A stretch of DNA of 64,000 nt from Acidobacteriota bacterium (GCA_965203535.1 OZ241897.1:452790-516789), one strand, 5' to 3'; counted from the first letter of the stretch, positions 5,709 through 37,040 are shown. Notes: generated by a model not told the origin, from the sequence alone. Made by a program: numbers and translations.

Positions 5709-7109
5709 TCAGAGCCAGTCTCGAATATCCACGAACCTTCCCTGGATCGCCGCCGCGGCCGCCATGGCGGGACTCACCAGGTGCGTCCGTCCGCCCTTCC
5801 CCTGACGGCCCTCGAAATTCCGGTTCGAGGTGGAGGCACAGCGCTGTCCGGGCTGGAGGACGTCGGGGTTCATGCCCAGGCACATGCTGCAACCCGACTC
5901 CCGCCAGTCGAACCCGGCCTCGATGAAGATCCGGTCCAGTCCTTCCGCTTCGGCCTGTCCCTTCACGCGCTGGGAACCGGGAACCACCATGGCATAGACG
6001 CGCTTGTCCACCTTCCGTCCTTGGGCGATGCGGGCGGCGCTGCGCAGATCCTCGATTCGGGAATTGGTGCAGGACCCGATAAAAACCCGGTCCACGCGAA
6101 CCCTCTGGACCGGAGTTCCCGGATCCAGATCCATGTAATCCAGGGCTCTCCGTCCCGACTCCCGGTCCGCGTCTTCGGCAAAGGCCTCCGGATCGGGAAT
6201 CACTCCCGTCACATCCGTCACCATGCCGGGATTGGTTCCCCAACTCACCTGGGGCGCCAGGGAATCCACGTCCAGGTCCATGTCCCGGTGGAATTCGGCC
6301 TGGGGATCGCTGGGGAGGAGCCGCCACCGGTCCACCGCCTCCTGGTACTCCTTTCCGGGAGGGGCGAACGGGCGTCCCTCCAAATACTCGAACGTGGTTT
6401 CGTCGGGAGCCACCATTCCGGCCCGGGCCCCCGCCTCGATGGACATGTTGCACAGCGTCATCCGCTCCTCCATGGAGAAGCCTTCGACCACCGGCCCGGC
6501 GTACTCGATGACGTGTCCCACCGCGCCATCCGTCCCCAGCGTGCGAATCATGTAGAGAATCACGTCCTTGGCGGTCACGCCGGCAGAGAGGCTGCCGGAG
6601 AAGTGGACCCGCATGGTGCGCGGCCGGCTCTGGATCAGGCACTGGGTGGCCAGTACGTGCTCCACCTCGCTGGTGCCGATTCCGAAGGCCAGGGCTCCGA
6701 AGGCGCCATGGGTCGAGGTGTGGCTGTCGCCGCAGACCATGGTCAGCCCGGGACGGGTCAGGCCCAGCTCGGGCCCGATCACATGCACGATGCCCTGGTT
6801 CCGGCTGTCCAGATCGTAGAGCGTGACCCCGAACTCCCGGCAATTCCGGCGAAGCGTCTCCACCTGCTTTCTGGCGATGAGGTCGGCAATCGGCAACTTC
6901 TGATCGACGGTGGGGATGTTGTGATCCAACGTGGCCGTCGTCAGGTCGGGACGCCTGACCCCTCGTCCCGCCTGACGCAGGCCCTCGAAGGCCTGGGGCG
7001 AGGTGACCTCGTGCACCAGGTGGCGATCGATGTAGAGGAGGTCGGGCCGGCCGGGTTCCTGGTGAACCACGTGATCGTCCCAGATCTTCGCGAAGAGGGT
7101 CTTGGGCAT
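5709..7109 (-). CDS. leuC: 3-isopropylmalate dehydratase large subunit
   Basis: Aconitase-family LeuC motifs ([24 protein letters not shown], Cys ligands in [11 protein letters not shown]). Confidence 0.9.
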
Positions 7110-7140
7110 GTCTATGGACGGGCCCGTCCGCTCGGACCCG

Positions 7141-8688
7141 TCAGGCCGAGGCGGTGCGCGGCGCCTCCCGCTCCAACCGGCCGGCCTCGTACAGAGCCTT
7201 GTTGACGGCGTTCAGATAGGCCCGCGCGCTGGCATCGATGACATCGACGCTGGCGGCCTTCCCCGTATATCCGATCCCGCCGAACCTGGTGCGAACAAAG
7301 ACTTCACCCAGGGCGTCCTTGCCCCGGCTCACGGCGCTGACGTTGTAATCCAGCAGCCGCCCGGTGATCCCCGTAATCCGGTCGATGGCCTTGTAGATGG
7401 CATCGATGGGGCCGTCGCCGTGGGCGGTGGCGACGAATTCGTCGTCGCCCTGCTGGAGCTGGATCACAGCCGATGCCAGTTGCTGGTTGCCGCCCTGCGC
7501 ATGAACGTACTTGAGCTTGTAGGTGTCCGGAATCGTCTTGATCCCGTCCTGGATGATGGTGATCAGATCTTCGTCGAAGATTTCCTTCTTCTGATCCGCC
7601 AACTTGGTAAAGAAGAAATACGCTCGATGCAATTCGTCCGGCGAGAGTTCGTAACCCAGGTCCTGGTACTTTCTCAGGAGGGCGTGACGTCCGCTGTGCT
7701 TTCCCAGCACCAGCGAACTGCTCTTGAGGCCCACCGACTGGGGAGTCATGATCTCGTAGGTCTGGGCATTCTTGAGCATCCCGTCCTGGTGGATCCCCGC
7801 CTCGTGGGCGAAGGCATTCTTGCCCACGATGGCCTTGTTGGCCTGGACGAAGCTTCCGGTCAAGTTCACCACCATGCGGCTCGCCGCGTAGAGCTCCTCC
7901 GAGACGATGTCGGTGTAGAAGGGCAGGATACTGCCCCGGGTCCGCAGCATCATGACGATCTCTTCCAGCGAGGCGTTCCCCGCCCGTTCGCCGATGCCGT
8001 TGATGGTGCATTCCACCTGGCGGCAACCGCGCTCCAACGCGGTCAGCGTATTGGCGACGGCCAGCCCCAGATCGTTGTGGCAGTGGGTGCTGAAAATCGC
8101 GTGCTCGTGGTGGGAGAGGCGGGAGCGGAGCATCTGGATCAGAGCCCCGTACTCGCCGGGAACGGAATAGCCCACCGTGTCGGGGATGTTGACCGTCGTG
8201 GCGCCCGCCTCGAGGACGGCGTCGAACACCTCCACCAGGTAGTCGATGTCGCTCCTGGTGGCGTCCTCGGCGGAGAACTCGACGTCCTCGCAAAGGTTCC
8301 GGGCAATCTTGACGGCCTCCACCGAGGCCTCCAGCACTTCGGACCGGGATCTTCTGAGCTTGTGTTTCAGGTGGATGTCCGAAGTGGCGATGAAGGTGTG
8401 AACCCGGGGCCTGTACGCTTCCCGCAGGGCCTCCCAGGCCCGCTCGATGTCCATTCGATTGGCCCGGCACAGACCGGCAATGGTGGGCTCCCTCACCTCT
8501 GCGGCAATGGCTTGCACCGCCTCGAAATCTCCCTGGGAAGCGATGGGGAACCCGGCCTCGATGATGTCCACGTTCAGCCGTTCCAACTGACGAGCCATCT
8601 TCAGCTTCTCCTGAAGGTTCATGGAGCATCCGGGAGACTGCTCGCCGTCACGCAACGTGGTGTCGAATATGTAGATTTTTTCCGACAT
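7141..8688 (-). CDS. leuA: 2-isopropylmalate synthase
   Basis: [26 protein letters not shown], and a C-terminal LeuA dimerisation/regulatory domain. Length is 515 aa. Confidence 0.9.
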
Positions 8689-16654: not shown

Positions 16655-17491
16655 ATGGGCGACACCGATTGGGCGGCGGCGGTTCAGATGACCTCGGGAG
16701 AGGACAAGGAGCGCAACCTGGAGACCGCCGAGCGGCTGGTCCGGGAAGCGGCCGGGCGGGGCGCCCGGCTGGTGGCGTTGCCCGAACTCTTCAACTGCCT
16801 GGGCCGCAAGGAGCAGGTGGTCCGCGCCGCCGAGCCGGTCCCGGGTCCCACCAGCCGGAGGATGAGCGATCTGGCGCGCCGTCTCCGGATCACCTTGTTG
16901 GCCGGCAGCCTCTGCGAGCGGGCCGAGGGCCGGGACCGGGTCTTCAACACCAGTCTTCTGTTCGACGAGTCGGGAACCCTCCTGGCCCGTTACCGCAAGA
17001 TCCACCTCTTTGACGTGGACCTGCCCGGGCGGGTGTCCTACCGGGAATCGAGCTGGATGGCTCCCGGCCGCGACGTCGTCTCCGCCGATACCGGTCATGG
17101 GCGTCTGGGCCTCTCCATCTGCTACGATCTGCGCTTCCCTGAACTTTACCGGCGGCTGGTTCGCCGGGGCTGCCGCATTCTGATGGTCCCTTCGGCCTTT
17201 TCGTTGCCGACGGGCCGGGACCACTGGGAGGTCCTGTTGCGGAGCCGCGCCATCGAAAATCAGGCGTACGTCATCGCTCCCAATCAGTTCGGTCAGCACA
17301 CGCCCGGATTCGCCACGTGCGGCCGCTCCGCCATCATCGATCCCTGGGGCGTGCCCCTGGCCGTGGCTCCTGACGGAGAAGGCGTAGTCCTGGCCCGGCT
17401 GGATGCCCGGCGTCAGGAGACCATTCGCCGGGAACTCCCCGCCCTGAGCCACCGGAGACTTGACCCCGGCGGATCGACTGAGCGAATATGA
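16655..17491 (+). CDS. Carbon-nitrogen hydrolase (nitrilase superfamily) protein
   Basis: Catalytic triad context: E in LVALPELF, K in YRKIHLFD, C in LGLSICYDLRFPE. Confidence 0.85.
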   Translation: MGDTDWAAAVQMTSGEDKERNLETAERLVREAAGRGARLVALPELFNCLGRKEQVVRAAEPVPGPTSRRMSDLARRLRITLLAGSLCERAEGRDRVFNTSLLFDESGTLLARYRKIHLFDVDLPGRVSYRESSWMAPGRDVVSADTGHGRLGLSICYDLRFPELYRRLVRRGCRILMVPSAFSLPTGRDHWEVLLRSRAIENQAYVIAPNQFGQHTPGFATCGRSAIIDPWGVPLAVAPDGEGVVLARLDARRQETIRRELPALSHRRLDPGGSTERI

Positions 17492-17515
17492 CATTCAGTT
17501 CATGCATTTTTTTGC
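17470..17515 (+). terminator. Weak candidate intrinsic terminator after the nitrilase gene
   Basis: A short imperfect hairpin followed by a T7 run (catgcatttttttgcc) just after the stop codon. The stem is poor. Confidence 0.2.
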
Positions 17516-17582
17516 CCGTTCGTTCTTGGGCACTAGTCCCGTATCGCACCGAGAGCGGGGGTCCTTCAAAAAGGGGTGAAAC

Positions 17583-18527
17583 ATGAAAAGATCGACGTCC
17601 CTGTTCGTTTCCGCCATCGTGGCGATCCTCCTCACAACGGTGAATGTCCCGGCCAGGAAGATGAAGGCGGACCAACTGGTCGCCCTCCATCTGAAGTCCA
17701 TTGGCGAGAACCTGGTCTGGAAGAACCGGGTGGCCCAGGGACTGGGCACCATGGACATCCGGGTCGGAGGCCAGGGCAAGCTGGGCGGGCCCGCCATGCT
17801 GTTGGCTGAGGCCGACAAGATGCGGACCTCCTTCAATTTCGGGCACACCCAATACCCCCAGGAGACCCTGATCCGCAATGGGGACAAGGTGGACGTTGCC
17901 TACATCAGCCCGGGCGTCCGGTCTCAACTGGGGACGGCCCTCTGGAACAACTTTCCCCGGCTGGCACAGGAGGGACTCTACGGAGGAGTTCTTTCCACCG
18001 ACTGGGCGCTGCTGGACCTGAGGAAGAAGAGGGCCAAGGTCCGCTACCGGGGACTCAAGAAGTTCGAAGGGAAAGAGCTGCACGAACTGGAGTACAGGCC
18101 CAAGAAGGGAGTCGACTACAGGATCCGGCTCTACTTCGAACCTGAGACCTTCCGGCACGTGGCCAGCAGCTACCGGCTCTCGGTGCCGGGCGGCATGGGA
18201 CGAGGATTGGTGGACATTGCCGGCGACGGTCGCACCGGTGGAGGCGCAGGCGCGGGAGGTGCCACGGCCCCGGGAGGCGGAGGCTTCTCGGGACCGCAGT
18301 ACAATACTCGTCCGGGTCCCTCCGACGGGCCGGCGAACCAGAATCGGATCAACCTGGTCGAGACCTTCTCGGACTTCAAGCAGGTCGATGGGCTGACCTT
18401 GCCGCACCTTTACCGGATCACCCTCAACGTCGACGCCCAATCCGGTTTCGTCGGACACTGGGAGATCAAGATCGACCGCATGTCGCACAATCGCAAGATC
18501 TCTGCCAAAGCCTTCGCCATCAAGTAA
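17583..18527 (+). CDS. Secreted protein of an uncharacterised paralogous family, copy 1 of 5
   Basis: Sec signal peptide with AxA-type site (..VNVPA|RK). Conserved blocks LHLKSIGEN, NRVAQGLG..DIRVGG, FPRLAQEGLYGGVLSTDWALLDL, RYRGLKKFEG, RLYFEPETFRHVASSYR, DFKQVDGLTLPH, GFVGHWEIKIDRM. Gly-rich insertion GDGRTGGGAGAGGATAPGGGGFSGP. RBS aaggggtgaaacATG. Confidence 0.85.
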   Translation: MKRSTSLFVSAIVAILLTTVNVPARKMKADQLVALHLKSIGENLVWKNRVAQGLGTMDIRVGGQGKLGGPAMLLAEADKMRTSFNFGHTQYPQETLIRNGDKVDVAYISPGVRSQLGTALWNNFPRLAQEGLYGGVLSTDWALLDLRKKRAKVRYRGLKKFEGKELHELEYRPKKGVDYRIRLYFEPETFRHVASSYRLSVPGGMGRGLVDIAGDGRTGGGAGAGGATAPGGGGFSGPQYNTRPGPSDGPANQNRINLVETFSDFKQVDGLTLPHLYRITLNVDAQSGFVGHWEIKIDRMSHNRKISAKAFAIK

Positions 18528-18578
18528 ACGTCTGAACCTTGGGGAGAAGATAGACATCCAACAGAGTAACCAGGCCCA

Positions 18579-19481
18579 ATGATCCGAATAATCCATCCGG
18601 CGGCGAGAAGCAAAATCCAAACGCCATGCAGATTCGTCGCCGCGTTCGCCGCGGCAACAATTCTCTTGATGACTCCGGTTGCGTCGGCCAAAAAGATGAA
18701 GGCCGATGCGCTGGTCGCACTCCACCTGAAGTCCATCGGCGAAAATCTGGTCCGGAAGAATCGGGTCGCTCAGGGTTTGGGCACCGTGGACATCCGGGTG
18801 GGAAACAGAGCCAAGATGGTCGGTCCGGCCATGCTCCTGGCGGAGGGGAACAAGCTCCGGACCGAAATCAAATTCGGCCATCCCCAATACGCCGGGGAGA
18901 CCCTCGTCCGCAGCGGGGAGAAGCTGGATATTGCCTACGTCAGTCCAGGCGCCCGCTCCCGACTGGGGAGTACGCTTTGGGATTTCTTCCCCCGTTTGGC
19001 CCAAGAGGGACTCTACGGAGGGATCCTCTCCACCGACTGGACGTTGCTGGACCTGGAAAAGAGACGGGCAAAGATCCGTTACCGGGGACTCAAGAAGTTC
19101 GAGGGCAGGAGGCTTCACAGGCTGGATTACAGGCCGAAGAGCGGAGTGGACTACCGGATTCGGATCTACTTCGAACCTGAGACCTACCGTCATGTGGCGA
19201 GCAGATACCGGTTGACTCTTCCGGCTGGCCTGGGGCGGGGACTCGTAAACATTCGTGGAGGAGCGTTTGGAGCCGGTTCCGGGCCCGCAGACAAGATCCG
19301 AATCACCTTGACGGAGACCTTTACGGACTTCAAGGAAGTCGATGGGTTGACCCTGCCGCATCGCTACAGGATCGCCCTCAACACATCCGCCATCGGAGGT
19401 TTCGTGGGACATTGGGAAATCAAGATCGACCGCATGATGCACGATCAGAGGATCGCCGCCAGAGCGTTCCGGATCGAATAG
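18579..19481 (+). CDS. Secreted protein of the same paralogous family, copy 2 of 5
   Basis: Collinear with copy 1 and has a signal peptide (..TPVASA|KK). Short variable loop (GGAFGAGSGPADK). Confidence 0.85.
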   Translation: MIRIIHPAARSKIQTPCRFVAAFAAATILLMTPVASAKKMKADALVALHLKSIGENLVRKNRVAQGLGTVDIRVGNRAKMVGPAMLLAEGNKLRTEIKFGHPQYAGETLVRSGEKLDIAYVSPGARSRLGSTLWDFFPRLAQEGLYGGILSTDWTLLDLEKRRAKIRYRGLKKFEGRRLHRLDYRPKSGVDYRIRIYFEPETYRHVASRYRLTLPAGLGRGLVNIRGGAFGAGSGPADKIRITLTETFTDFKEVDGLTLPHRYRIALNTSAIGGFVGHWEIKIDRMMHDQRIAARAFRIE

Positions 19482-19563
19482 ATATGAGGAATGGATCCAA
19501 GGGAGGATTGCAATGGCTGGAACCCTTGGACTGGGTGACGGCCGAATGACGATGAGGTGAATC

Positions 19564-20517
19564 ATGCGAAATTGGGGATTCCGGATCGCTCTCTTCGCTC
19601 TGTTGCTGCCGTTCGCGGCCGTGGAAGTAACAGCCAAGAAGCTGAAGAAGGAGGAGTTGATCGCCCTCCACCTGAAATCCATCGGCGAGAACGCCGTCCG
19701 GAAGAACCGGGTCGCCCAGGGATCGGGCACCATGGACATCCGCGTGGGCGGCCAGGGCAATCTGAACGGCCGGGCCATGCTTTTGGCGGAGGGGGACAAG
19801 CTTCGGACCGCGCTGATCTTCAACCATGTCCAATATCCCAAGGAAACCCTCATCCGAAACGGCGACCAACTGGACATCGCCTACATCACCACCGGTGTCC
19901 GGTCCCAACTGGGGACGGTTATCTGGGAAAACTTCCCCCGGCTGGTTCAGGAGGGTCTCTACGCCGGAGTCCTTTCCACCGACTGGGCGCTGCTCAAACT
20001 GAAGGAAAAACGGGCCAGGATCCGTTACCGGGGCCTCAAGACATTCGAGGGCCGAAGGCTTCACGAAGTCGATTACAAGCCCAGGAAAAAGGTCCGCTAC
20101 CGGGTCCGGCTCTACTTCGAGCCGGAGACCTACCGCCACGTTGCCAGCAAGTATCGGATCGCCGTTCCCCGTAGCGCCATGCGTGGCCTGACCAACATTT
20201 CCAGCGGAGGAGGGGCCCCGGTGGGCGCCGGTGGCGGAATCACTCCCGGAAACCGCACCGTGTCCAATGATCGAGGAAGTCTGTTGGGGCAGATCGGAGG
20301 CCCGGGAGCCGGGGACGACCCCACAACCCGCAGCACGGTCGAACTGACGGAGAGGTTCTCGGAGTTCAAGCAGGTCGACGGTCTGACCCTGCCGCATCAC
20401 TACCAGATCTCTCTCAACGTCGATGCCAACACCGGATTCGTGGGCCACTGGGCGATGAAGCTCGAACGCATGTCGCACGATCGTCAAATCTCCCCAAAGG
20501 CCTTCGTCATCCCGTAG
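19564..20517 (+). CDS. Secreted protein of the same paralogous family, copy 3 of 5 (subfamily B, long Gly-rich loop)
   Basis: MRNWGFRIALFALLLPFAAVEVTA|KK. Long insertion SSGGGAPVGAGGGITPGNRTVSNDRGSLLGQIGGPGAGDDPTTRS. RBS aggtgaatcATG. Confidence 0.85.
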   Translation: MRNWGFRIALFALLLPFAAVEVTAKKLKKEELIALHLKSIGENAVRKNRVAQGSGTMDIRVGGQGNLNGRAMLLAEGDKLRTALIFNHVQYPKETLIRNGDQLDIAYITTGVRSQLGTVIWENFPRLVQEGLYAGVLSTDWALLKLKEKRARIRYRGLKTFEGRRLHEVDYKPRKKVRYRVRLYFEPETYRHVASKYRIAVPRSAMRGLTNISSGGGAPVGAGGGITPGNRTVSNDRGSLLGQIGGPGAGDDPTTRSTVELTERFSEFKQVDGLTLPHHYQISLNVDANTGFVGHWAMKLERMSHDRQISPKAFVIP

Positions 20518-20539
20518 CCGGGCGCAGGGATCAGGACCG

Positions 20540-21631
20540 ATGCAAGGAATCGCCGCCGTTTCGCTGGGCCCCCGAAAGGAGATGGTTTTCCGGGAATTCC
20601 CTCTTCCCGACGTGGGTCCCGACGACATTCTGGTCCGGGTGCGCCGCTCCAACATCTGCGGTTCGGATCTGCACATCTGGCACGGGCATGGGCCCGAGTT
20701 CACCCAGGGGGACGGCTTCGTCCCCGGGCATGAAATGGTGGGAGAAGTCTTTCGCCTCGGCCGCCGGGTGAAGACCGACGTTCTGGGACAGCGGCTCGAG
20801 GAGGGCGACCGGATCGCCTACACCTACTTCCTTCCCTGCGGAAATTGCGCGGCGTGCATGGACGGATCGCCCGCCTGCCCCAACCGGTCCGACCATTGGT
20901 TCCAGGATGCGAGTGAATCTCCCCACTTCCGGGGAGCCTACGGAGAGTATTACTACCTGCGCCGGGGACAGACGGTGTGCAAGGTCCCTCCCGGATTGAC
21001 CAACTCGGAGGTCTCGCCGGTCAATTGCGCCCTCTGCCAAGTGCTCTACGGACTGGACCAGATCGGGGTCCGCCTGGGCGACACCATCATCGTCCAGGGC
21101 GCGGGCGGACTGGGACTGTACGCCTGCTCCCTGGCCAAGGAGATGGGCGCCGGTCAGGTCATCGTCTTCGACCGGTTGGAGAGCCGGCTGGAGCTGGCCC
21201 GCTCCTTCGGCGCCGACCTCACGGTCAACATCGAATCCGTGAACCGGAAGACCCGTCGAGAGATGATCCTGGACCTGACCCGGGGCCAGGGCGCCGACGT
21301 GGTGGCCGAGTTCGCCGGATCACCCCTGCCGGTGGAGGAGGGCGTGCACCTGCTCCGCCAGTTCGGCCGCTATCTTTGGGTGGGAAACGTCGCCCCGGGG
21401 AGGACCGCCGCCCTGGACCCGGCCATCAGTGTCCGGTCCGGACACACCATCCGCGGAGTCATCGCGTATGCTCCTTGGGTCCTGCCCCGGGCCCTGGACT
21501 TTCTGGCCCGCCGCGGACATGCCTATCCGTTCGAGAAGATCATCTCGCACACCTTCCCGCTGACCGATATCAACGAGGCCTTCGCCCTGGCCGACGAAGG
21601 CAAGGCCATCCGCGTCTCACTGACCTCCTGA
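20540..21631 (+). CDS. Zinc-dependent alcohol dehydrogenase (MDR family)
   Basis: N-terminus of the MxAAV...FPLP..GP.D.LV.V type, catalytic Zn motif CGSDLH, structural Zn cluster CGNCAACMDGSPACPN, Rossmann GAGGLGLYA. Inserted between paralog copies 3 and 4. Confidence 0.85.
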   Translation: MQGIAAVSLGPRKEMVFREFPLPDVGPDDILVRVRRSNICGSDLHIWHGHGPEFTQGDGFVPGHEMVGEVFRLGRRVKTDVLGQRLEEGDRIAYTYFLPCGNCAACMDGSPACPNRSDHWFQDASESPHFRGAYGEYYYLRRGQTVCKVPPGLTNSEVSPVNCALCQVLYGLDQIGVRLGDTIIVQGAGGLGLYACSLAKEMGAGQVIVFDRLESRLELARSFGADLTVNIESVNRKTRREMILDLTRGQGADVVAEFAGSPLPVEEGVHLLRQFGRYLWVGNVAPGRTAALDPAISVRSGHTIRGVIAYAPWVLPRALDFLARRGHAYPFEKIISHTFPLTDINEAFALADEGKAIRVSLTS

Positions 21632-21848
21632 ACCGAAGCCGGGGAAACTGACGCAAGCCGCGTGCTGGACTTCGTCTTCGCCACCGGCTCAAACATCACG
21701 CCGTCCGCCTCCGCTTCGACGTGAACCGTCCTGGTTCAGAAACCGTCGAATCTACAAAGGAAGTAAAATGGAAGAGACCCGATCCCGAGTCGTCCTGGAT
21801 GTTCCAACGCCCGAACTCCCCGTCCACCACGCGGAGATGAAGCAAACC

Positions 21849-22811
21849 ATGAGAAAGTGGGGAAGCTGTATCGCTCTCGCTACCGTGGCATTTCTCCTGT
21901 CGACCGTGGCCGTTTCGGCCGGGAAGATGAAGACGGAGGAGTTGATCGCCCTCCACCAGAAAGCCATCGGCGAGAACCTCGTCCGGAAGAACCGGGTCGC
22001 CCAGGGATCGGGGTCCGTGGACATCCGGGTGGGGGGCCAGGGAAATCTGAACGGACGGGCCATGTTCCTGGCAGAGGGGGACAAGCTGCGGACCACCTTA
22101 ACCTTCGGTCACATCCAATATCCCCAGGAAACTCTCATCCGGAACGGTAACGACTTGGATATCGCCTATATCACTCCGGGGATCCGTTCCCAACTGGGGA
22201 CGGCTATCTGGGACAATTTCCCTCGACTGGCTCAGGAGGGACTTTATGCGGGCGTCCTTTCCACCGACTGGGCGCTGCTCAACCCGAAGAAAAAGCAGGC
22301 CAAGATCCGCTACCGAGGGCTCAAGACATTCGAGGGCCGGAGGCTCCACGAAGTCGACTACAAGCCCAAGAAGAACGTCTCCTATCGAGTCCGGCTCTAT
22401 TTCGAGCCGGAGACCTACCGCCACGTGGCCAGCAAGTATCGGATCTTCGTGCCCCGCAGCACCATGCGAGGCCTGACCAACATTTTAAGTGGAGGAGGGG
22501 CCCCGGTGGGTGCCAGCCTAGGAATTACTGCCGGAAGCCGCACCGTGTCCGGTGCACGCGGCCTGTTGGGGCAGATCGGAGGCCCGGGAGCCGGGGACGA
22601 CCCCGCAACCCGCAGCACGGTCGAACTGACGGAGAGGTTCTCGGACTTCAAGGAGGTCGACGGACTGACCTTGCCGCATCTCTACCAGATCACTCTCAAC
22701 GTCGACGCCAACACCGGTTTCGTGGGACATTGGGAGATGAAGATCGAGCGCATGGTGCACGATCAGAGGATCGCCGCCCGGGCCTTCACCATCCAGATGA
22801 AAAAGAGGTGA
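21849..22811 (+). CDS. Secreted protein of the same paralogous family, copy 4 of 5 (subfamily B, close relative of copy 3)
   Basis: Start chosen at MRKWGSCIALATVAFLL by homology to MRNWGF/MRKWGF in copies 3 and 5. The track ORF begins at 21768. Roughly 85% identical to copy 3 by eye, including the long Gly-rich loop. Confidence 0.8.
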   Translation: MRKWGSCIALATVAFLLSTVAVSAGKMKTEELIALHQKAIGENLVRKNRVAQGSGSVDIRVGGQGNLNGRAMFLAEGDKLRTTLTFGHIQYPQETLIRNGNDLDIAYITPGIRSQLGTAIWDNFPRLAQEGLYAGVLSTDWALLNPKKKQAKIRYRGLKTFEGRRLHEVDYKPKKNVSYRVRLYFEPETYRHVASKYRIFVPRSTMRGLTNILSGGGAPVGASLGITAGSRTVSGARGLLGQIGGPGAGDDPATRSTVELTERFSDFKEVDGLTLPHLYQITLNVDANTGFVGHWEMKIERMVHDQRIAARAFTIQMKKR

Positions 22812-22814
22812 ATC

Positions 22815-23717
22815 ATGCGTAAGTGGGGATTCCGGATTGCTCTTTCCGTCCTTTTGTTTCCGCTCGCCGGAGTGGACGGAACGGCCAAGAAATTAGAGAC
22901 GGACGATCTGATCGTCCTCCATCTAAAGGCCATGGGCGAGAACCCGGTGCGTAAGAATCGGGTGGCACAGGGATTGGGGACGTTGGACATCCGCGTCGGC
23001 GGCCTGGGTAAGCTGGGCGGTCCGGCCATGATTCTGGCGGAGGGGAACAAACTCCGGACCAGTTTCGGCTTCGGCCATATCCAGTATCCCAGGGAGCTCC
23101 TGATCCGGAACGGCGACAAGTTGGACATCGCCTACATCACTCCCGGCATCCGTTCCCAGTTGGGCACCGCCCTCTGGATCCACTTCCCCCGACTGGCACA
23201 GGAGGGTCTCTATGGAGGTGTCCTCACCACCGACTGGGCTCTGCTGGATCTCGAAAAGAGGCGCGCCAAGGTCCGCTACCGGGGGCTCAAGACGTTCGAG
23301 GACAGGAAGCTGCATGAGTTGGAGTATCGGCCCAAGAAGGGAGTGGAATACAGAATCCGGCTCTACTTCGAGCCTGAGACTTACCGACACGTGGCCAGCA
23401 GCTACCGCCTGACCATTCCGGCCGGCGTGGGGCGGGGGTTGATGCACGTGCAACAAGGACCCGTCTTTGGCGCCGCCGACGGGCCCGCGGACAACACGCG
23501 GATCCAATTGATAGAAACCTTTTCGGAATTCAAGGAAGTCGACGGGTTGACCCTGCCGCACCATTACCGGATCACCCTCAACGAGTCTGCGGCCACCGGC
23601 ATGGACTCGGGTGCCGGCTTCGCCCCCCGTAACGGCTTCGCAGGGCACTGGGAGATCAAGATCGACCGCATTTCTCACAAACACCGGATCACCCCCCAGG
23701 CCTTCGCCATCAAATGA
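22815..23717 (+). CDS. Secreted protein of the same paralogous family, copy 5 of 5
   Basis: MRKWGFRIALSVLLFPLAGVDGTA|KK. Starts 3 nt after the copy 4 stop. The copy 4 TGA stop sits inside the aggTGAatcATG RBS of copy 5. Confidence 0.85.
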   Translation: MRKWGFRIALSVLLFPLAGVDGTAKKLETDDLIVLHLKAMGENPVRKNRVAQGLGTLDIRVGGLGKLGGPAMILAEGNKLRTSFGFGHIQYPRELLIRNGDKLDIAYITPGIRSQLGTALWIHFPRLAQEGLYGGVLTTDWALLDLEKRRAKVRYRGLKTFEDRKLHELEYRPKKGVEYRIRLYFEPETYRHVASSYRLTIPAGVGRGLMHVQQGPVFGAADGPADNTRIQLIETFSEFKEVDGLTLPHHYRITLNESAATGMDSGAGFAPRNGFAGHWEIKIDRISHKHRITPQAFAIK

Positions 23718-26195: not shown

Positions 26196-26306
26196 GCAGC
26201 TCTTCCATTCACGAAATATTCGGTCGATCTGAACCGGGGCCGGCAGAACCCTCTTCACTGCCCCTCGCTTGTGGATCACCGGGGGCATCATTACCATGAC
26301 AGCAGC

Positions 26307-27668
26307 ATGACGGCGACTGCCGCAGATCGAACGGGCGACTGGAACCGGCGGCGCTGGATGGCCGCCGCCGCGGGCGTGACGGGACTGGCCGGCGTCGAGG
26401 ACATGGCCCTGGCCTTCTCTCCGGCGGCCTACGGCGTGAGGCGAAGCGGCCGGCCCCGGTCCGAGGGGCCCCGGAGCCGGATGAAGATCGGCTCCTTCGA
26501 GACCACCCTGGTGGCGTCGCCCGACCCCGCGCTGCTGAATTCCTGGAACGTCCACGACACCCACTTCCAGCGGGCGATCCTGGAATTGGAGACCACGGAC
26601 GGCTACACGGGAGTGGCCGAGATCGGGGGCGCGGCATTTCAGGCCCTCCAGGCCGCCCGCGACACCGTACTGGGACAGGATCCATTCGAGATCGAATATT
26701 TCCGCCGCAGCCTCTCCCATCGTTCCGAATTCGCCCCGAGGCACAACGCGGAAACCCTGGCCGCGGTGGAAATCGCCTGCCTGGACCTGATCGGAAAGGT
26801 GATCGACCGGCCGGTCGTCGATCTGATCGGCGGCCCCTTCCGCAAGGAGGCTCCCTTTTCGGCCTACAACTTTTTCGTCCTCCCGGAGGAGGGCGGACCG
26901 GACATCACGACTCCCGAAGCCATGGCGCAGGAGTTCCTGGACTTTCACCGGGACCACGGGTTCACGACCTGCAAGTTCAAGGGGGGCGTTCTGAAGCCCG
27001 AGCTGGAGGTCGAAGCCTTGACCCGCATCCGTGAGGCCATGCCCCAGGCCAAGCTTCGCATCGACCCGAACGCGTCGTGGAGCGTGGAAACCTCGGTCCG
27101 GGTCGCCCGCCGGCTGGAGCCGCTGGGGATGGAATACCTGGAGGATCCCACGCCGGGTCAGGAGGGCATGGCCGAGGTGCGCCAGCAGACGTCCATTCCC
27201 CTGGCCACCAACATGTGCGTCACCCGCATGGAGCACATCCGGCCCGGTTACGACCGGGGGGCCATCGACATCGTGTTGCTGGATCCGCATTACATGGGCG
27301 GGCTCAACAACGTCCGGCACTGGGCGTCGACGTGCGAGGCGCTGGGGTGGGGCTGCTCCGGCCACAGCAACAACTACCTGGGCATCTCCATGGCCACCCA
27401 GGTCCACATGGTCTGCGCCATCTCCCACATCACCTACGACGTGGATTCGCACTATCCGTGGACCACTCAAGACATCATCCGGGGCGGCATGCTCCGCTTC
27501 CGCGACGGCAAGATGGCGCTCCCCCCAGGTCCCGGCCTCGGCGTCGAGATCGACCCGGACAAGAAGGCCATGCTGGCCGAGAACGTGGCCCGCACCCGGC
27601 CCCGGCACGATCTGCTCCATCAATGGGACCCCGGCTACCCCAAGGACCGTCATGGCGTCCGCTGGTAG
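26307..27668 (+). CDS. Enolase-superfamily dehydratase (mandelate racemase/muconate-lactonizing enzyme family, glucarate-dehydratase-like KxK type) with a putative N-terminal Tat signal
   Basis: Enolase-superfamily organisation: capping domain, KFKGG at the end of a barrel strand, metal-ligand acids (LRIDPNASW, EYLEDP). N-terminus has NRRRWMAAAAGVTGLAGVEDMALA-FS, which is RR plus a hydrophobic stretch plus AxA. The track ORF starts at GTG 26271. The first ATG is at 26307. Confidence 0.8.
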   Translation: MTATAADRTGDWNRRRWMAAAAGVTGLAGVEDMALAFSPAAYGVRRSGRPRSEGPRSRMKIGSFETTLVASPDPALLNSWNVHDTHFQRAILELETTDGYTGVAEIGGAAFQALQAARDTVLGQDPFEIEYFRRSLSHRSEFAPRHNAETLAAVEIACLDLIGKVIDRPVVDLIGGPFRKEAPFSAYNFFVLPEEGGPDITTPEAMAQEFLDFHRDHGFTTCKFKGGVLKPELEVEALTRIREAMPQAKLRIDPNASWSVETSVRVARRLEPLGMEYLEDPTPGQEGMAEVRQQTSIPLATNMCVTRMEHIRPGYDRGAIDIVLLDPHYMGGLNNVRHWASTCEALGWGCSGHSNNYLGISMATQVHMVCAISHITYDVDSHYPWTTQDIIRGGMLRFRDGKMALPPGPGLGVEIDPDKKAMLAENVARTRPRHDLLHQWDPGYPKDRHGVRW

Positions 27669-27698: not shown

Positions 27699-30600
27699 AT
27701 GAATCGATCCCTGATCCCGATTCTCGGTCTACTTCTGTCGAGCACCGGCTGCGGACCGGACCCCGCCTCGACACCGCCCTCTCCGGAGGAAATGCTGGAA
27801 ACCTTTCGCATCAGCGACGAGTTCCGGGTGGAGATCTTCGCCGCCGAGCCGGACGTGACGGATCCGGTGGACATGGCCTTCGACGAGCAGGGACGGGCGT
27901 GGGTCGCCGAAATGAGGGACTATCCCTACCAACCCCCTGAGGGGGGACCGTTCCTGAGCCGGGTCCGAGTCCTGGAAGACCGGGACGGGGACGGCCGGGC
28001 GGACCACTCCACCATCTTCGCCGAAGGGCTGTCCAACGTGAAGAGCGTCCTCCCGTGGAAGGACGGCCTGCTGGTGAGTTCGGCGCCCCACATCCTTTAC
28101 CTGCGGGACACCGACGGAAACTTGAGAGCGGATGAGACGACTCCGCTCTTCAGCGGGTTCACGATCCTGGTGGACCCGGAGGGACAGCTCAGCAACCTGC
28201 GCTTCGGGATCGACAACTGGATCTACGCCGCCAACGACAGCCAGGCGGGAATGATCACCTTCTCCCGCCGGCCCGGCGCCGAACCGGTTTCGGTCCTGAA
28301 CGCCGACTTCAGGTTTCGTCTGGACCGGAATCTGTTCGAGGCGGCCTCGGGAGCCACCCGTTTCGGACTCAGCTTCGACGAGTGGGGCCATCGCTTCTTC
28401 TCCCAGTCCGGGAGACACCTTCACCACGTGGTGGCGGCCCGGCGCTATCTCCAACGCAACCTCTTTCTGACAGCTCCTCCCGTCACTCGGTTCATCTCCG
28501 AGCAGAATCGGCGCATATTCCAGCTCACCCCCGCGGAGGCCTGGCGCGAGGCGCGCACCCGGATGCGCCGGCGGCGCGCGCGGGAACTGGGGAGAGAACG
28601 GCAAACGGCTTCCACCGGATTCTTCAGTGGAGCGACGGGAGCCACCATCTACACCGGAGATACGTTTCCACCGCGCTTCGCGGGCAACGCGTTTGCCGGA
28701 GACGTGGCCGCCAACATCGTTCACCGCGACGTTGTCACCCCCAGCGGGGTCAGCTTCGTCGGCAAGCGGCCCGAGGAGGAACGGGACCGGGAGTTCATGG
28801 CTTCCACTTCTCGTTGGTTCCGCCCGGCCAGTTTCACCGTGGGTCCGGACGGCAACCTCTACGTGGTCGACATCTGCCGCCAGTACGTGGAGACTCCGGC
28901 TTCCATCCCCGAGCCCATCAAGGAGGGCCTCGACTTCTACGCCGGAATCAATCACGGACGCATCTACCGGATCGTGCCCCGGAATTCCGCCTCTCGGCCG
29001 TACGTCCGCCCGGAACTCCACAAAGCCGCCTCACCGGAGTTGGTCGCGCATCTCGCCTCGCCGAACCAGTGGTGGCGCCTCACCGCCCAACGTCTCCTCC
29101 TCCAGCGGCAGGACCGGTCCGCTCTTCCCGCGTTGAGAAAGATGGCGGGTGACCGGAAGAATCCCCGGGCCCGGCTCCACGCCCTCTATGCTCTGGAAGG
29201 CCTGTCCGCCCTGGAGGAATCCCTCGTCGGCGAGGCGCTGAGAGACGGCCATTCGGGCGTTCGGGAGCAGGCCGTCATTCTTGCCGAGAGGTTCCCCGGC
29301 CTTCTGGCCAAACTGGTGAAGATGACGGGAGATCCGTCCCCCCGGGTCGCCTTCCAACTCTCCCTGAGCCTGGGTGAATTTTCCGGTCCCCGCCTGCGCG
29401 GCGCCTTCCGGGACCTGGTCGCCCGCCACGGAGAGGACCCGTGGCAGCGCGCCGCCGTCCTCAGTTCCGACGCCGGCTCCTCGCTCCCGCTTCTGGAATC
29501 GATGGTGGCCGAACGCGGCTATTTCAAGCATCCGACTCCGAACAAGACCGGCTTCCTGGAGGACCTGGCCGCCGTCGTGGGCGCCCGCAACCGGGGGCAG
29601 GAAGTGCAACGCCTGGTTCGCCTGTTGGCCCGGGCCCGGCCACTCAGACAGGAACGGTGGCAGATCGCGGGGCTCTCGGGGCTGACCCGCGGCCTGGAGC
29701 TGGGACAGGCAATTCACCTGAAGCCGGCAGGCGCGGCCGGATCATTGCGCAGCCTGTTGGCGAGCCGTTCACAGGAGGTGCGCGACGCCGCGGCCAGAGT
29801 CGGCAAGCACTTCCGGGTTCCCTCGCTGGTGGCGGCCGCCAGGAAGGTCGTCCTGGACGAAACGCTTTCGTCGGCCCGGAGATCCAGCTCCGTCCGGATG
29901 CTCGCCGCCGCCTCCTACCGGGAGGTTGAGCCGGTCTTGGCGCGTGTCCTGACCGCCGCGGATCCGGAGTTGACGCGGGCCGCCCTGGACACCCTCTCCT
30001 ATTTCGACGACCCGGACGCCAGCCGCCTGGTCCTGGAAAAGTGGAGCACTTTCTCCCCGGATGCTCGTGCGGCTGCTCTGGCGATCCTGCTCAACCACCC
30101 CGCGCGGGTGCAGGCTCTGTTGAGCGCCGTCGAGAGCGGCGCCATCGAAAGGGCCGCGCTGGACCATCAGCAGACGCAGTTCTTGAGAAACCATCCCGGA
30201 GAGGAGATCCGCCGGCGAGCCCTTACAATCCTGCAGGCGGACACCACGGACCGGGATGCGCTGGTCGAGGAGTACCTGCCGGTCCTGGAGCTGGATGCCG
30301 ATCCCCTTAACGGCGGAAAGGTCTTTCGGAGGGAATGCGCCCGCTGCCATGAACCTGATCAGGGCGTCGGAGTGGGACCGGGGCTGAGGACGGCGGTCCA
30401 GGGCCATACGCGCGAACAGCTCCTTTTCGACATCCTGAATCCCAGCGGGCTCATCCTGTCCAGCTATCAGAACTACATCGTCACCACCCGTGACGGCAGG
30501 GTCTATGGAGGAATCATCTCCGCCGAGACTCCCGGCACTCTCACCCTGCGGAGCGGGCCGAATCAGGAGGAAATCCTCCTCCGGGGCCGAATCGCCGAAA

Positions 30601-30737
30601 TCCGCGCTTCGGAGGTGTCGGTCATGCCCGAAGGTTTCGAGGAGAACCTGACCCGCCAGGAACTGGCCGACGTCATCTCGTTCATGCAGGCGGGATACCT
30701 GATCCCCGAGGAACTGGCCGCGCCGAGAGACAATTGA
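27699..30737 (+). CDS. PVC-type lipoprotein: membrane-bound-dehydrogenase-like beta-propeller domain + HEAT-repeat region + C-terminal heme-binding (CxxCH) domain
   Basis: Lipobox LLSSTGC. N-terminal block typical of TIGR02604-like proteins (RISDEFRVEIFAAEPDVTDPVDMAFDEQGRAWVAEM). HEAT-like repeats. Single CARCH motif and a C-terminal TIGR02603-like domain. Length is 1012 aa. Confidence 0.8.
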   Translation: MNRSLIPILGLLLSSTGCGPDPASTPPSPEEMLETFRISDEFRVEIFAAEPDVTDPVDMAFDEQGRAWVAEMRDYPYQPPEGGPFLSRVRVLEDRDGDGRADHSTIFAEGLSNVKSVLPWKDGLLVSSAPHILYLRDTDGNLRADETTPLFSGFTILVDPEGQLSNLRFGIDNWIYAANDSQAGMITFSRRPGAEPVSVLNADFRFRLDRNLFEAASGATRFGLSFDEWGHRFFSQSGRHLHHVVAARRYLQRNLFLTAPPVTRFISEQNRRIFQLTPAEAWREARTRMRRRRARELGRERQTASTGFFSGATGATIYTGDTFPPRFAGNAFAGDVAANIVHRDVVTPSGVSFVGKRPEEERDREFMASTSRWFRPASFTVGPDGNLYVVDICRQYVETPASIPEPIKEGLDFYAGINHGRIYRIVPRNSASRPYVRPELHKAASPELVAHLASPNQWWRLTAQRLLLQRQDRSALPALRKMAGDRKNPRARLHALYALEGLSALEESLVGEALRDGHSGVREQAVILAERFPGLLAKLVKMTGDPSPRVAFQLSLSLGEFSGPRLRGAFRDLVARHGEDPWQRAAVLSSDAGSSLPLLESMVAERGYFKHPTPNKTGFLEDLAAVVGARNRGQEVQRLVRLLARARPLRQERWQIAGLSGLTRGLELGQAIHLKPAGAAGSLRSLLASRSQEVRDAAARVGKHFRVPSLVAAARKVVLDETLSSARRSSSVRMLAAASYREVEPVLARVLTAADPELTRAALDTLSYFDDPDASRLVLEKWSTFSPDARAAALAILLNHPARVQALLSAVESGAIERAALDHQQTQFLRNHPGEEIRRRALTILQADTTDRDALVEEYLPVLELDADPLNGGKVFRRECARCHEPDQGVGVGPGLRTAVQGHTREQLLFDILNPSGLILSSYQNYIVTTRDGRVYGGIISAETPGTLTLRSGPNQEEILLRGRIAEIRASEVSVMPEGFEENLTRQELADVISFMQAGYLIPEELAAPRDN

Positions 30738-33379: not shown

Positions 33380-33622
33380 CCCGCATTTCTCATCAGGTCG
33401 CTATGCGTATGATGAAAAACAATCTGGTTTTGAACATTTCCGCGGATTTTTCCAAGGATTTTCCGGGACAGACTCCGCTGGGCGCGCGCTCGCTGGTCTT
33501 TTCGCCCTCAGCGCGCACATGCTCCCTCAAACGTAGTCACCACTACGCTCTCGGTCGCGAGCACGCGCTGAGGGCGAAAATCCTGCGCGATCGTCACGCC
33601 CCCTGATGAAAAATGCGGGCTA
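33377..33622. mobile_element. MITE-like element: ~20-bp terminal inverted repeats (GCCCGCATTT(C/T)TCATCAGG) flanked by TA on both sides, an inner 18-bp inverted repeat (TTTTCGCCCTCAGCGCGC) and a central small hairpin (CGTAGTCACCACTACG)
   Basis: Read directly. Left arm cTAgcccgcatttctcatcagg at ~33376-33397 and right arm cctgatgaaaaatgcgggcTAg at ~33602-33623 are reverse complements with 1 mismatch. The inner arms are perfect over 18 bp. There is no coding capacity. The R/G-rich track ORFs crossing it are spurious. Confidence 0.6.
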
Positions 33623-35281
33623 GTCCCTTTTCGGTCGCCTGAGGGGGTCGACGGCGACCATGCCTGCGCTGCGAAATCCGAAGACCTTGGCGTTGAAGAG
33701 GCGAAAGTGCAGGCGCACGGTCTTCCCGGCCAGATCCTCGATTCCCGCGCCGTCCTTCCAGACCAGCGGAACCCAGATGCGGTTCCCCGAAATGGGTTGG
33801 GCCCGGTAGACCTTCCGGTCCGGATCCCCTTCCACCATCAACTCGACGGCTACCGATCCGGAATCACCGTGCGTGCGGAGGTTGACCTCCACCGGCTTTC
33901 CCTGGAAGCGGAACCGCTGGGTCGTGAACTGGCCCTCCTGCGCGGCCTCGATCCCGGCCAGGCGGCCATCCTCCCAGGCGGCCCAGCCGATTCCCCGAGG
34001 CCACTTCCGATCCTTCTGGAAGCGGACTTTCCACCACTCGTTGTGGGACCAACTGCTGCCGACGATGGGAACCGCGATCCGCCCGTCGGGCAGTTGCACC
34101 AGGGAGGAGACGGCGTACATGGAGCCGCCCGCCCAACTCCCCGGCTTGCCCAATTCCACGATGGATTCCCGGCTCATCCAATTCCAGACGATGCCGTCGA
34201 GGCTTGTGGCCATCCGCAGGTCGACCAGACTCGTGTCCCGGTGGTAGACGGAGGCCAGCATGAGGTGGGTGTTCTCCGTCCCCGGGTAGTGGAGGTAGGT
34301 GTTGTTGTAGAAGTCGTCGGAGGGAGACTCTTCGGGTCCGGGGGTCAGGACCAGGTTGGGATGGGGCCACCGGCGGAAATCCGAGGTCTCGGCCCGGGCG
34401 ATGCTGCGGCGGCGAGGGTAGTTCTGCCGCATCAGCATCACGTACTTTTTCAATTTGCCGTCGAAATAGATGCTGGGAACGCCGTCGTTGTTGAAATACG
34501 TGTTCCAGAGCGGTTCGGGAAGGCGTTTCCAGTGGATCCCGTCGGGGGAGACGGCCGCTCCCAGGATGCCGCTCATGCTCTTGGCATTCGGCTGAAACAA
34601 CCGGATATTGGTGAGGCTGGTGGTCTTGTACCGCTCCTCGGGAGGCGCGTTGGGATCGACGAAGATGTGACCGTTGATTCCGGCAAGGCCGTTGAGGGCG
34701 ATCAGGTTGTTGTCCCGGCTTCCCTCGAACTCCACCATGCCCATGGAGACCCGTTTCCAGTTCAGGCCGTCCTCAGACTCCGCATAGCACACCCCCGAGC
34801 CTCCGCTGTCCGACCCCAGTTTCAGGCGGCCGTCAGGGGCGATCACTGCGCGGTCCCGTACGGTCCAGCCGCAGCCATACCAGAGACGATAGCGGCCGTC
34901 CTCGTGGATCACGGCCTTGGGCCCGATGCCGCTTCTTTCCCAAGGCTTCTCCGGTTTGAGCCAGGGACCCACGGGCCGGCCCTTTTCGACTCTGATCTTC
35001 ACGCCGCTGGCGACCCGTATTCTCCGGGAGGCACTGGGTCCGTCCGAGACGTACATGGTGGCCTTGTAGTAGTCGCGCACTTTGTCGATCAGCTGCCGGT
35101 CGTGTTCGGTCACGTGGGTCAGATCGACGGGAAAGATGGCGTTTCCCGGATCCACCTTGGTCCAGTCGGTGAAGATATGAGTCACCACCGGGGAGGCGTC
35201 GTTCTGGGACAGGGAAATTCCCCACGAGAGACTGCAGACCATCCCCACCAGAATCGAATTGAAGCGGCGTTTCGTGTTCAT
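33620..35281 (-). CDS. Secreted glycoside-hydrolase-like beta-propeller protein (five-bladed GH43/GH32-clan-like; family not assigned)
   Basis: Signal peptide after the ATG at 35281 (verified), with RBS gagga. Repeated DG(I/L)HW/NW blade motifs and FEGSRDNN. Paralogous to the next gene. Confidence 0.7.
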   Translation of the reverse strand: MNTKRRFNSILVGMVCSLSWGISLSQNDASPVVTHIFTDWTKVDPGNAIFPVDLTHVTEHDRQLIDKVRDYYKATMYVSDGPSASRRIRVASGVKIRVEKGRPVGPWLKPEKPWERSGIGPKAVIHEDGRYRLWYGCGWTVRDRAVIAPDGRLKLGSDSGGSGVCYAESEDGLNWKRVSMGMVEFEGSRDNNLIALNGLAGINGHIFVDPNAPPEERYKTTSLTNIRLFQPNAKSMSGILGAAVSPDGIHWKRLPEPLWNTYFNNDGVPSIYFDGKLKKYVMLMRQNYPRRRSIARAETSDFRRWPHPNLVLTPGPEESPSDDFYNNTYLHYPGTENTHLMLASVYHRDTSLVDLRMATSLDGIVWNWMSRESIVELGKPGSWAGGSMYAVSSLVQLPDGRIAVPIVGSSWSHNEWWKVRFQKDRKWPRGIGWAAWEDGRLAGIEAAQEGQFTTQRFRFQGKPVEVNLRTHGDSGSVAVELMVEGDPDRKVYRAQPISGNRIWVPLVWKDGAGIEDLAGKTVRLHFRLFNAKVFGFRSAGMVAVDPLRRPKRD

Positions 35282-35373
35282 TTGAACAGTGTTCCTCGGT
35301 AGTTGAGACAGCGCCAATTGAGAATCCGTCCTGGCAGGGCACTCGACTTCAGCCCGGCCAGCGGATGCAGATT

Positions 35374-36964: not shown

Positions 36965-37040
36965 TGGTAGCCCCAACGGGAGTCGAACCCGTGTTACCGC
37001 CTTGAGAGGGCGGCGTCCTAGGCCACTAGACGATGGGGCC
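36965..37040 (-). tRNA. tRNA-Glu (anticodon CUC)
   Basis: The reverse complement reads GGCCCCATCGTCTAGTGGCCTAGGACGCCGCCCTCTCAAGGCGGTAACACGGGTTCGACTCCCGTTGGGGCTACCA. It has a cloverleaf with 7-bp acceptor stem, anticodon stem CCGCC/GGCGG and loop CU-CUC-AA, T-loop GGTTCGA and encoded CCA. It closely resembles bacterial tRNA-Glu. Confidence 0.9.

Follow-up and report, generated by a model that had tools for sequence, protein, structure and literature searches.

A conserved tandem array of exported proteins with a predicted LolA-type fold in an Acidobacteriota genome

Five homologous genes for secreted proteins, here called c1 to c5, lie at positions 17583–23717 of a 64,000-nucleotide stretch of an Acidobacteriota bacterium genome (GCA_965203535.1, OZ241897.1:452790-516789; hereafter the window), all on the + strand, with a gene for a zinc-dependent medium-chain alcohol dehydrogenase (Zn-ADH) sitting between c3 and c4. 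We find that these proteins belong to a previously unnamed, large sequence family that is nonetheless of a known structural kind, their predicted structures placing them, very probably, in the LolA structural superfamily (Pfam clan LolA_LolB). Evolutionarily, comparison with related genomes indicates that the paralogs arose long ago and that each has been kept under purifying selection, and functionally they are most likely subfunctionalised carriers that handle hydrophobic or amphipathic cargo in the periplasm.

The array opens with c1 (17583–18527, +; 314 amino acids (aa)) and c2 (18579–19481, +; 300 aa), whose open reading frames (ORFs) encode products identical to database proteins P0023 and P0045, respectively, and continues with c3 (19564–20517, +; 317 aa), the Zn-ADH gene (20540–21631, +; 363 aa; Pfam ADH_N and ADH_zinc_N), c4 (21849–22811, +; 320 aa if counted from the start shared with the other copies in the alignment, the longest ORF being open from 21768 and 347 aa long) and c5 (22815–23717, +; 300 aa). 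An earlier description, made by a model from the sequence alone (the sequence-only reading), had recognized five co-oriented homologous genes, with copies 3 and 4 flanking an alcohol dehydrogenase, and this is borne out by the ORFs, by the domains of the intervening gene, and by pairwise identities of 60–79% (protein) and 72–84% (DNA) over copies that are alignable end to end. The closest pair, c3 and c4, had been estimated as ~85% identical, near the measured 78.8% (aa) and 83.9% (nt). Spacing is tight, with 22 nt from c3 to Zn-ADH and 3 nt from c4 to c5, and the finer claims about gene starts also hold: gaggtgaatcATGCG forms the start context of c3 as well as of c5, and the TGA that ends c4 falls within the gaggtgaatcATGCG of c5, i.e., in its ribosome-binding region, 3 nt ahead of the c5 ATG. 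Zn-ADH has no signal peptide, and its best NCBIfam match (TIGR03366) is below the cut-off; because it begins 22 nt after c3 and is always c3-linked in related genomes, it is probably co-transcribed with c1–c3. A promoter and terminator scan of 16.4–24 kb returned no promoter-like sites, and terminator-like sites at chance level on the minus strand only. The array is flanked by a CN_hydrolase gene upstream and by a GMC oxidoreductase gene with its Gluconate_2-dh3 subunit downstream, in agreement with the nitrilase-family gene and GMC pair previously named there.

Two artefactual explanations of the array were rejected. An antisense ORF of 847 aa (17334–19877, −) covers c1–c3, and similar ones run over c4 and c5; we regard these as artefacts of GC richness, and the + strand frames are preferred because the GC content at their third codon positions is 0.73–0.82, as opposed to ~0.44 at the second. 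Mis-assembly was likewise discarded, since the copies differ by 16–28% in DNA and the same array recurs in nine independent Acidobacteriota metagenome-assembled genomes (MAGs), with six of these nine loci on chromosome-scale sequences of 5.2–6.3 Mb, so that the copies represent real tandem genes rather than collapsed or expanded repeats.

At the protein level, the copies are homologous, secreted, basic and beta-rich, as had been proposed. Signal peptides and cleavage sites were judged by inspection of the sequences, and all five copies begin with a hydrophobic signal that ends in a small-x-small site (c1, VPA/RKMK; c2, ASA/KKMK; c3, VTA/KKLK; c4, VSA/GKMK; c5, GTA/KKLE), the c1 signal being ~24 aa long and that of c2 having a longer n-region. 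The Sec signals of the sequence-only reading thus stand for all five, and its placement of the site directly before KKMK/KKLK is only approximate, as RKMK, GKMK and KKLE also occur. Similarly, the sequence blocks that it listed as invariant exist without being strictly so, given that c4 carries LHQKAIGEN, c3 carries FPRLVQEGLYAG and c5 carries GFAGHWE. The mature proteins have isoelectric points (pI) of 9.8–10.4 over the five copies (c1, 10.0; c2, 10.4; c3, 10.2; c5, 9.8), and none of the five contains a Cys.

Searches by sequence left the family without a name. Neither Pfam nor NCBIfam matched any of the five copies, no Pfam family reached threshold in 39 further members (44 scanned), and sequences in the PDB were matched neither by single-protein nor by family-profile searches, so that by sequence there is no confident match to a characterised enzyme or transporter family; canonical LolA (PF03548) in particular had no sequence or profile match in the five copies (Pfam, NCBIfam) or the 39 additional members (Pfam). 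A word-indexed search recovered ~100 close relatives, those with a named source all being annotated as 'hypothetical' and none having a Pfam domain, and a profile search of 1.84 billion cluster representatives (clusters at 50% identity) recovered 1029 at E ≤ 1e-3 and 435 at E ≤ 1e-30, the best 150 of the 1029 being nearly all 270–320 aa long and matched end to end. The label 'unknown family' that these proteins had been given is therefore apt at the sequence level only, and with 1029 clusters they are not a local oddity. Members with a named taxon are proteins from Acidobacteriia, Terriglobia or Acidobacteriales MAGs, and a genome scan found the family in Acidobacteriota only, except for one MAG labelled Candidatus Aminicenantes; the family is thus seemingly typical of Acidobacteriota.

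Structurally, the family could be placed. An AlphaFold model of c5 (34 homologs; predicted local distance difference test score (pLDDT) 83.4; predicted template modelling score 0.81) was of low confidence only in the signal peptide and two loops, and a model of c3 (pLDDT 79.2) had the same core. In both, 13 antiparallel strands follow an N-terminal helix, a pair of helices separates strand 5 from strand 6, and the chain closes with a short C-terminal helix. Fold matches included the putative outer-membrane lipoprotein-sorting protein 3bk5 (scores of 15.8/15.0), the DUF1329 protein 4z48 (15.1/14.5), P. gingivalis LolB (DUF4292; 9tpm, 14.8/14.4) and LolA3 (9tp6, 14.1/13.4), NE2245 (3buu, 12.8/12.1), and various classical LolA and LolB structures (8–11), and Foldseek was concordant (3buu, E 1.7e-7). 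A fold check on a single copy had been suggested, with LolA/LppX-like and DUF3108-like folds among the candidates, and it is the LolA-superfamily fold that was found. The model has the open antiparallel barrel of at least 11 strands, the N-terminal helix and the plug helices by which that superfamily is recognized, and an export signal was seen by inspection in the five copies and the other members inspected. As modelled, the architecture is that of the larger 'LolA_like / DUF1329 / LolA3 / Bacteroidota-LolB' type, i.e., an open 13-stranded barrel with two plug helices. The proteins are not LolB-like, because they are without a lipobox (the mature window copies having no Cys); across 142 aligned representatives a lipobox-like motif occurs in five, and the signals of the window copies and inspected members are of the signal peptidase I type. 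An RseB/MucB-like identity was rejected as well, the proteins being single-domain with Foldseek TM-scores of 0.19–0.26, and no Pfam family of sigma or anti-sigma factors was found among the flanking genes scanned.

In the same 142-representative alignment (23–56% identity to c5, the reference for numbering), conservation of at least 80% was found at H36, Y91, E94, R113, S114, E130-G-L, G134-G135, W141, Y155, Y171, F185, H192, Y197, E234, F236, F239, P248 and W279. The family-wide median mature pI is 8.4, with 27% of representatives acidic, and loop 1, which lies between strands 9 and 10, is typically 15 residues long and at most 52; because of these values, the high basic charge and long loops of the window copies are clade traits, not family traits.

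Loop 1 is the main variable element of the copies, as the sequence-only reading had seen when it located their divergence mainly in one loop. In c1 (18189–18338, +; about residues 203–252) it is long and Gly/Pro-rich, with two sequence variants among orthologs, and the segments homologous to it are predicted to be disordered in the c5 and c3 models. In c3 (20188–20319, +; residues 209–252) it is long and Gly/Pro/Ser-rich, predicted to be disordered (pLDDT 25–33 throughout), and nearly identical in the c3 orthologs of nine other genomes. The loop 1 of c2 is short and almost invariant in ten aligned c2-type genes from nine genomes, and c5 combines a short loop 1 with a specific loop 2 insertion (residues 259–274) that is kept in all c5 orthologs, its low-confidence part (23601–23627, +; residues 263–271, the TGMDSGAGFAPRN region) having pLDDT < 50.

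This stability among orthologs is one of several signs of age. The nine related loci (L001–L009) share the gene order YchF (−), PIG-L (−), CN_hydrolase (+), c1, c2, c3, Zn-ADH, then zero to two further copies and GMC (−), followed by an enolase-superfamily gene and a DUF7133/cytochrome c gene; c1 orthologs are 74–93% identical, Zn-ADH comes directly after c3 in all nine, and c5 is found in some. The survey of copy number and neighbourhood that had been called for thus returned a kept CN_hydrolase-c1-c2-c3-ADH order, and the dN/dS check returned purifying selection, with ratios (omega, NG86) of 0.12–0.27 between orthologs and 0.23–0.32 between paralogs. Synonymous divergence between paralogs (dS, NG86) is 0.84–1.09, c3/c4 having a dS of 0.415 and a dN of 0.128. 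Because the order is conserved, the loops are stable among orthologs, dS is 0.84–1.09 and omega is below 0.35, we conclude from sequence comparison that the paralogs are old and individually maintained. The 'recent duplication' once proposed is contradicted by these dS values (0.42 even for c3/c4) and by c1, c2, c3 and c5 forming separate ortholog lineages in conserved order. Loop diversification fails too, each loop type being nearly unchanged among orthologs at an omega of 0.12–0.32, and diversifying selection on the loops was rejected on the same grounds; four ortholog types (c1, c2, c3/c4 and c5) fit better than 'two subfamilies'. A c3-type copy between the dehydrogenase and c5, the slot of c4, was found in none of the nine related genomes and in the window only; a 347-aa database protein, P0063, is a candidate c4 counterpart.

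Despite its age, the array is recombinationally active. The 5′ end of c5 in the window is more c3-like than its remainder. In L004 (OY764083.1; 9072–10900 compared with 5901–7774), the gene in the c5 position matches the c3 of the same genome at 100% identity over 40 nt upstream and the first ~600 nt and turns c5-like thereafter, and an extra c2 copy just upstream of it is 100% identical to c2 over the 3′ ~800 nt, events that look like one recent segmental duplication of ~1.4 kb or gene conversion inside the array. In L006 (10001–10876), the gene in the middle of the c1-c2-c3 triplet is nearest c5 (73%) rather than c2, and slot paralog content is therefore not fixed.

Beyond these loci, a second clade (L010–L015, L021–L024) encodes family proteins of ~50–56% identity, with two copies flanking a GFO/IDH/MocA oxidoreductase that bears a twin-arginine translocation (TAT) signal (e.g., L021, 10001–13475); its flanks are orthologous (GMC 71–74% and CN_hydrolase 65–69% identical), and with respect to these flanks the family genes are in inverted orientation. 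An array-embedded oxidoreductase thus recurs in two clades, with a different enzyme family each time. More distant members occur for the most part singly, among unrelated neighbours, and now and then as tandem pairs, e.g., the tandem or near-tandem pairs of L026 (10001–11856) and L020 (10094–14595) at 28–35% identity; because of these pairs, we take duplication to have recurred independently in other lineages. No conserved functional partner emerged across the ~12 contexts examined, only the two closest clades sharing neighbours (CN_hydrolase, GMC), and a transporter-coupled or operon-defined function was rejected since distant members have no common neighbours. LolCDE-like genes were absent from the contexts examined around the array (window to ~42 kb) and around its relatives, and at one locus (L031) MacB/FtsX-type permease genes lie 3–6 kb from the family gene, which may be chance.

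Functionally, we posit that the five paralogs act as carriers, a mechanism in which we have moderate confidence because, by analogy, all characterised LolA-fold members carry cargo of this kind: LolA and LolB carry lipoprotein acyl chains, LprG and LppX carry glycolipids, and RseB binds lipopolysaccharide or lipid. Specialised paralogs of this fold also have precedents, namely the DUF1329 protein AmeB in the handling of monoterpenes (PMC6394551) and the F. johnsoniae LolA2/LolB2 pair of the flexirubin locus (PMC11885536). Each of the five proteins would be exported by Sec as a soluble non-lipoprotein and would shield its cargo (lipoprotein acyl chains, lipids, glycolipids or small hydrophobic molecules) in the barrel cavity, either ferrying it over the periplasm or keeping it at the surface of a membrane. 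A lid could be formed by the plug helices together with the invariant EGLxGG...W segment, and the conserved His/Glu/Tyr residues could serve as a latch or head-group site. A single ancestral gene may have given rise to a stable set of paralogs, probably co-transcribed with the dehydrogenase, in a marine Acidobacteriota lineage (c1, c2, c3, often c5, and here also c4), a marine and possibly sponge-associated habitat being hinted at by the related MAG names 'Langseth' and 'COS4'. Since every paralog has retained a strongly basic surface and a disordered Gly/Pro-rich loop peculiar to it, such a stable set suggests a division of labour, through different cargoes, different docking partners or a hetero-oligomer, and not redundancy. 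The sequence-only reading, which favoured a binding or carrier role over an enzyme in recently diversified proteins, is in this sense partly supported: its carrier-like part agrees with the predicted LolA-type fold, and its recent, diversifying part does not survive.

Several observations weigh against this carrier interpretation. H36, E94, E130, Y171, H192, Y197 and E234 are almost invariant polar residues across the 142 representatives, a set that exceeds the need of a generic acyl-chain pocket and could instead point to a head-group site, a lid latch or catalysis. Moreover, the profile hidden Markov model (HMM) thresholds of LolA_like, DUF1329 and DUF4292 were reached by none of the 44 members, the best being P0130 with LolA_like (PF17131; E 0.073, 13 bits where 30 are required); when the family profile was compared by hhalign with an approximate E. 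coli LolA sequence, the probability was 0.6%; and a transporter of the LolCDE-like, RND or MCE kind was conserved as a neighbour in none of the ~12 contexts. Enzymes built on LolA-like scaffolds do exist, VioE and other barrel enzymes among them, and the polar residues might form a catalytic His/Glu/Tyr constellation acting on a substrate tied to the neighbouring periplasmic sugar/polyol oxidoreductases, a reading we think rather unlikely. It would account for the 93–99% conservation of H192, E234, H36, E94, Y171 and Y197, for the oxidoreductases embedded in the arrays of two clades (Zn-ADH here and the TAT-signal GFO_IDH_MocA enzyme in L021), and for the GMC/Gluconate_2-dh3 pair close by in both; however, these two embedded enzymes differ in family and compartment, distant family members stand alone among unrelated neighbours, and conserved polar residues can form a lid latch, as Arg43 does in LolA. 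The neighbourhood could also be accommodated without catalysis by the family itself, in a LolA-fold relay or c1-c2-c3 hetero-oligomer that would pass a hydrophobic or amphipathic substrate (e.g., a host-derived lipid alcohol, sterol, terpenoid or glycolipid) to the co-encoded dehydrogenases, with the embedded Zn-ADH or TAT-GFO/IDH/MocA enzyme and the adjacent GMC/small-subunit pair as acceptors, the His/Glu/Tyr cluster recognizing head groups, and the disordered basic loops acting as docking elements. We give this relay little credence, though if it were true it would represent a transporter-independent uptake and oxidation module.

That these proteins do the work of LolA and/or LolB in this lineage, as general carriers of outer-membrane lipoproteins multiplied for different lipoprotein classes, would fit a predicted fold nearest to Bacteroidota LolB, LolA3 and 'lipoprotein-sorting' proteins, the several LolA/LolB paralogs known in Bacteroidota, and a gene that is usually alone in the sampled Acidobacteriota contexts, as a housekeeping envelope factor could be. 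Yet the missing lipobox precludes LolB-like anchoring, Pfam scans and hhalign found no sequence similarity to LolA, and a lolCDE-type ABC transporter was linked in no context examined, given that the MacB/FtsX genes of L031 may be there by chance; we consider such equivalence unlikely. A role as secreted basic adhesins or matrix binders, in which the barrel is a scaffold and the basic surface and Gly-rich loops bind anionic host or biofilm polysaccharides, draws on the pI of 9.8–10.4 in this clade versus the family median of 8.4, on the conservation of long low-complexity loops, and on MAG names that hint at marine or sponge habitats. It is nonetheless quite improbable, as neither is a family-wide trait (27% of representatives being acidic and the majority having a 15-residue loop), conservation is strongest in core and plug residues instead of loops, and inspection of the sequences revealed no outer-membrane export, anchoring or repeat domains. 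Least probable by far are small outer-membrane beta-barrels of a porin or OmpW-like kind, which would share with these proteins a barrel of antiparallel strands; the modelled N-terminal and plug helices, the high charge, and an end (...AFAIK) without the C-terminal aromatic signature of outer-membrane proteins all disagree with it, and it was ruled out on scores and architecture.

Elsewhere in the window, the genes beyond the GMC pair include an enolase-superfamily protein (26271–27668, +) that is glucarate-dehydratase-like but far under the NCBIfam cut-off, and whose N-terminal extension includes NRRRWMAAAAGVTGLAG, which may be a twin-arginine signal; a periplasmic location would be unusual for such an enzyme. 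It is followed by a 1012-aa PVC-type heme-binding CxxCH protein (27699–30737, +; DUF7133, HEAT repeats and cytochrome c) that has the enolase-like gene beside it in L002–L006, L008 and L009, seven of the nine relatives, and that, together with GMC/Gluconate_2-dh3, makes up an oxidoreductase gene block with several apparently exported members. A 754-aa fusion of a pyridine-nucleotide-disulphide oxidoreductase with AIRS/AIRS_C domains (SelD/ThiL/PurM-like) is encoded at 2275–4539 (+), and two ORFs with coding-like third-position GC, at 33620–35494 (−, 624 aa) and 37140–38750 (−, 536 aa), matched no Pfam family at E ≤ 1e-5. A single RNA gene was detected in the window, a tRNA-Glu (CTC) at 36965–37040 (−).

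Taken as predicted carriers, these proteins matter in two respects. More than 1000 clusters (50% identity) of uncharacterised secreted proteins, absent from Pfam and NCBIfam, can now be assigned to the LolA superfamily on the strength of the models, which should help annotation and research on envelope biogenesis in Acidobacteriota, a phylum whose lipid and lipoprotein trafficking is essentially unstudied. In addition, a conserved array of three to five genes with stable, paralog-specific disordered loops would offer a clean natural case of subfunctionalisation among LolA-fold carriers, one that reveals no new kind of system and parallels recently described LolA/LolB paralogs of Bacteroidota.

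Among known systems, canonical LolA and LolB of Proteobacteria are smaller, with 11 strands, and the LolA sequence noted above had an hhalign probability of 0.6%; the present proteins differ from them in having neither a lipobox nor linked lolCDE-type ABC transporter genes. The PF17131 LolA_like or lipoprotein-sorting proteins (3bk5; 3buu, NE2245) are closer in fold without a significant HMM match (one of 44 members at best, E 0.073), and the present proteins are set apart from them by long disordered loops and the invariant set of polar residues. DUF1329 proteins (4z48) include AmeB of Castellaniella defragrans, which is needed for growth on monoterpenes (PMC6394551); DUF1329 genes adjoin those for DUF1302 outer-membrane proteins and RND transporters, partners that do not occur in the contexts here. 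P. gingivalis LolA3 (9tp6) and LolB-PG/DUF4292 (9tpm) come from another phylum and share ~12% identity with the present family. LolA3-PG has 13 strands, a C-terminal helix and a pI of 9.2 and does not bind LolB, and the 13 strands and short C-terminal helix of our models match that description (PMC13103446); LolB-PG, in contrast, is a lipoprotein, whereas the present proteins have no Cys and give no sign of pairing of the LolA-LolB type. The likeness in genomic setting lies with F. johnsoniae, whose LolA2 and LolB2 are located in the flexirubin locus, presumably for a pathway-specific hydrophobic cargo, and are likewise extra LolA-fold paralogs within a specific metabolic locus (PMC11885536); there, a LolA-LolB pair sits in a pigment cluster, whereas here three to five homologous soluble paralogs stand beside oxidoreductases.

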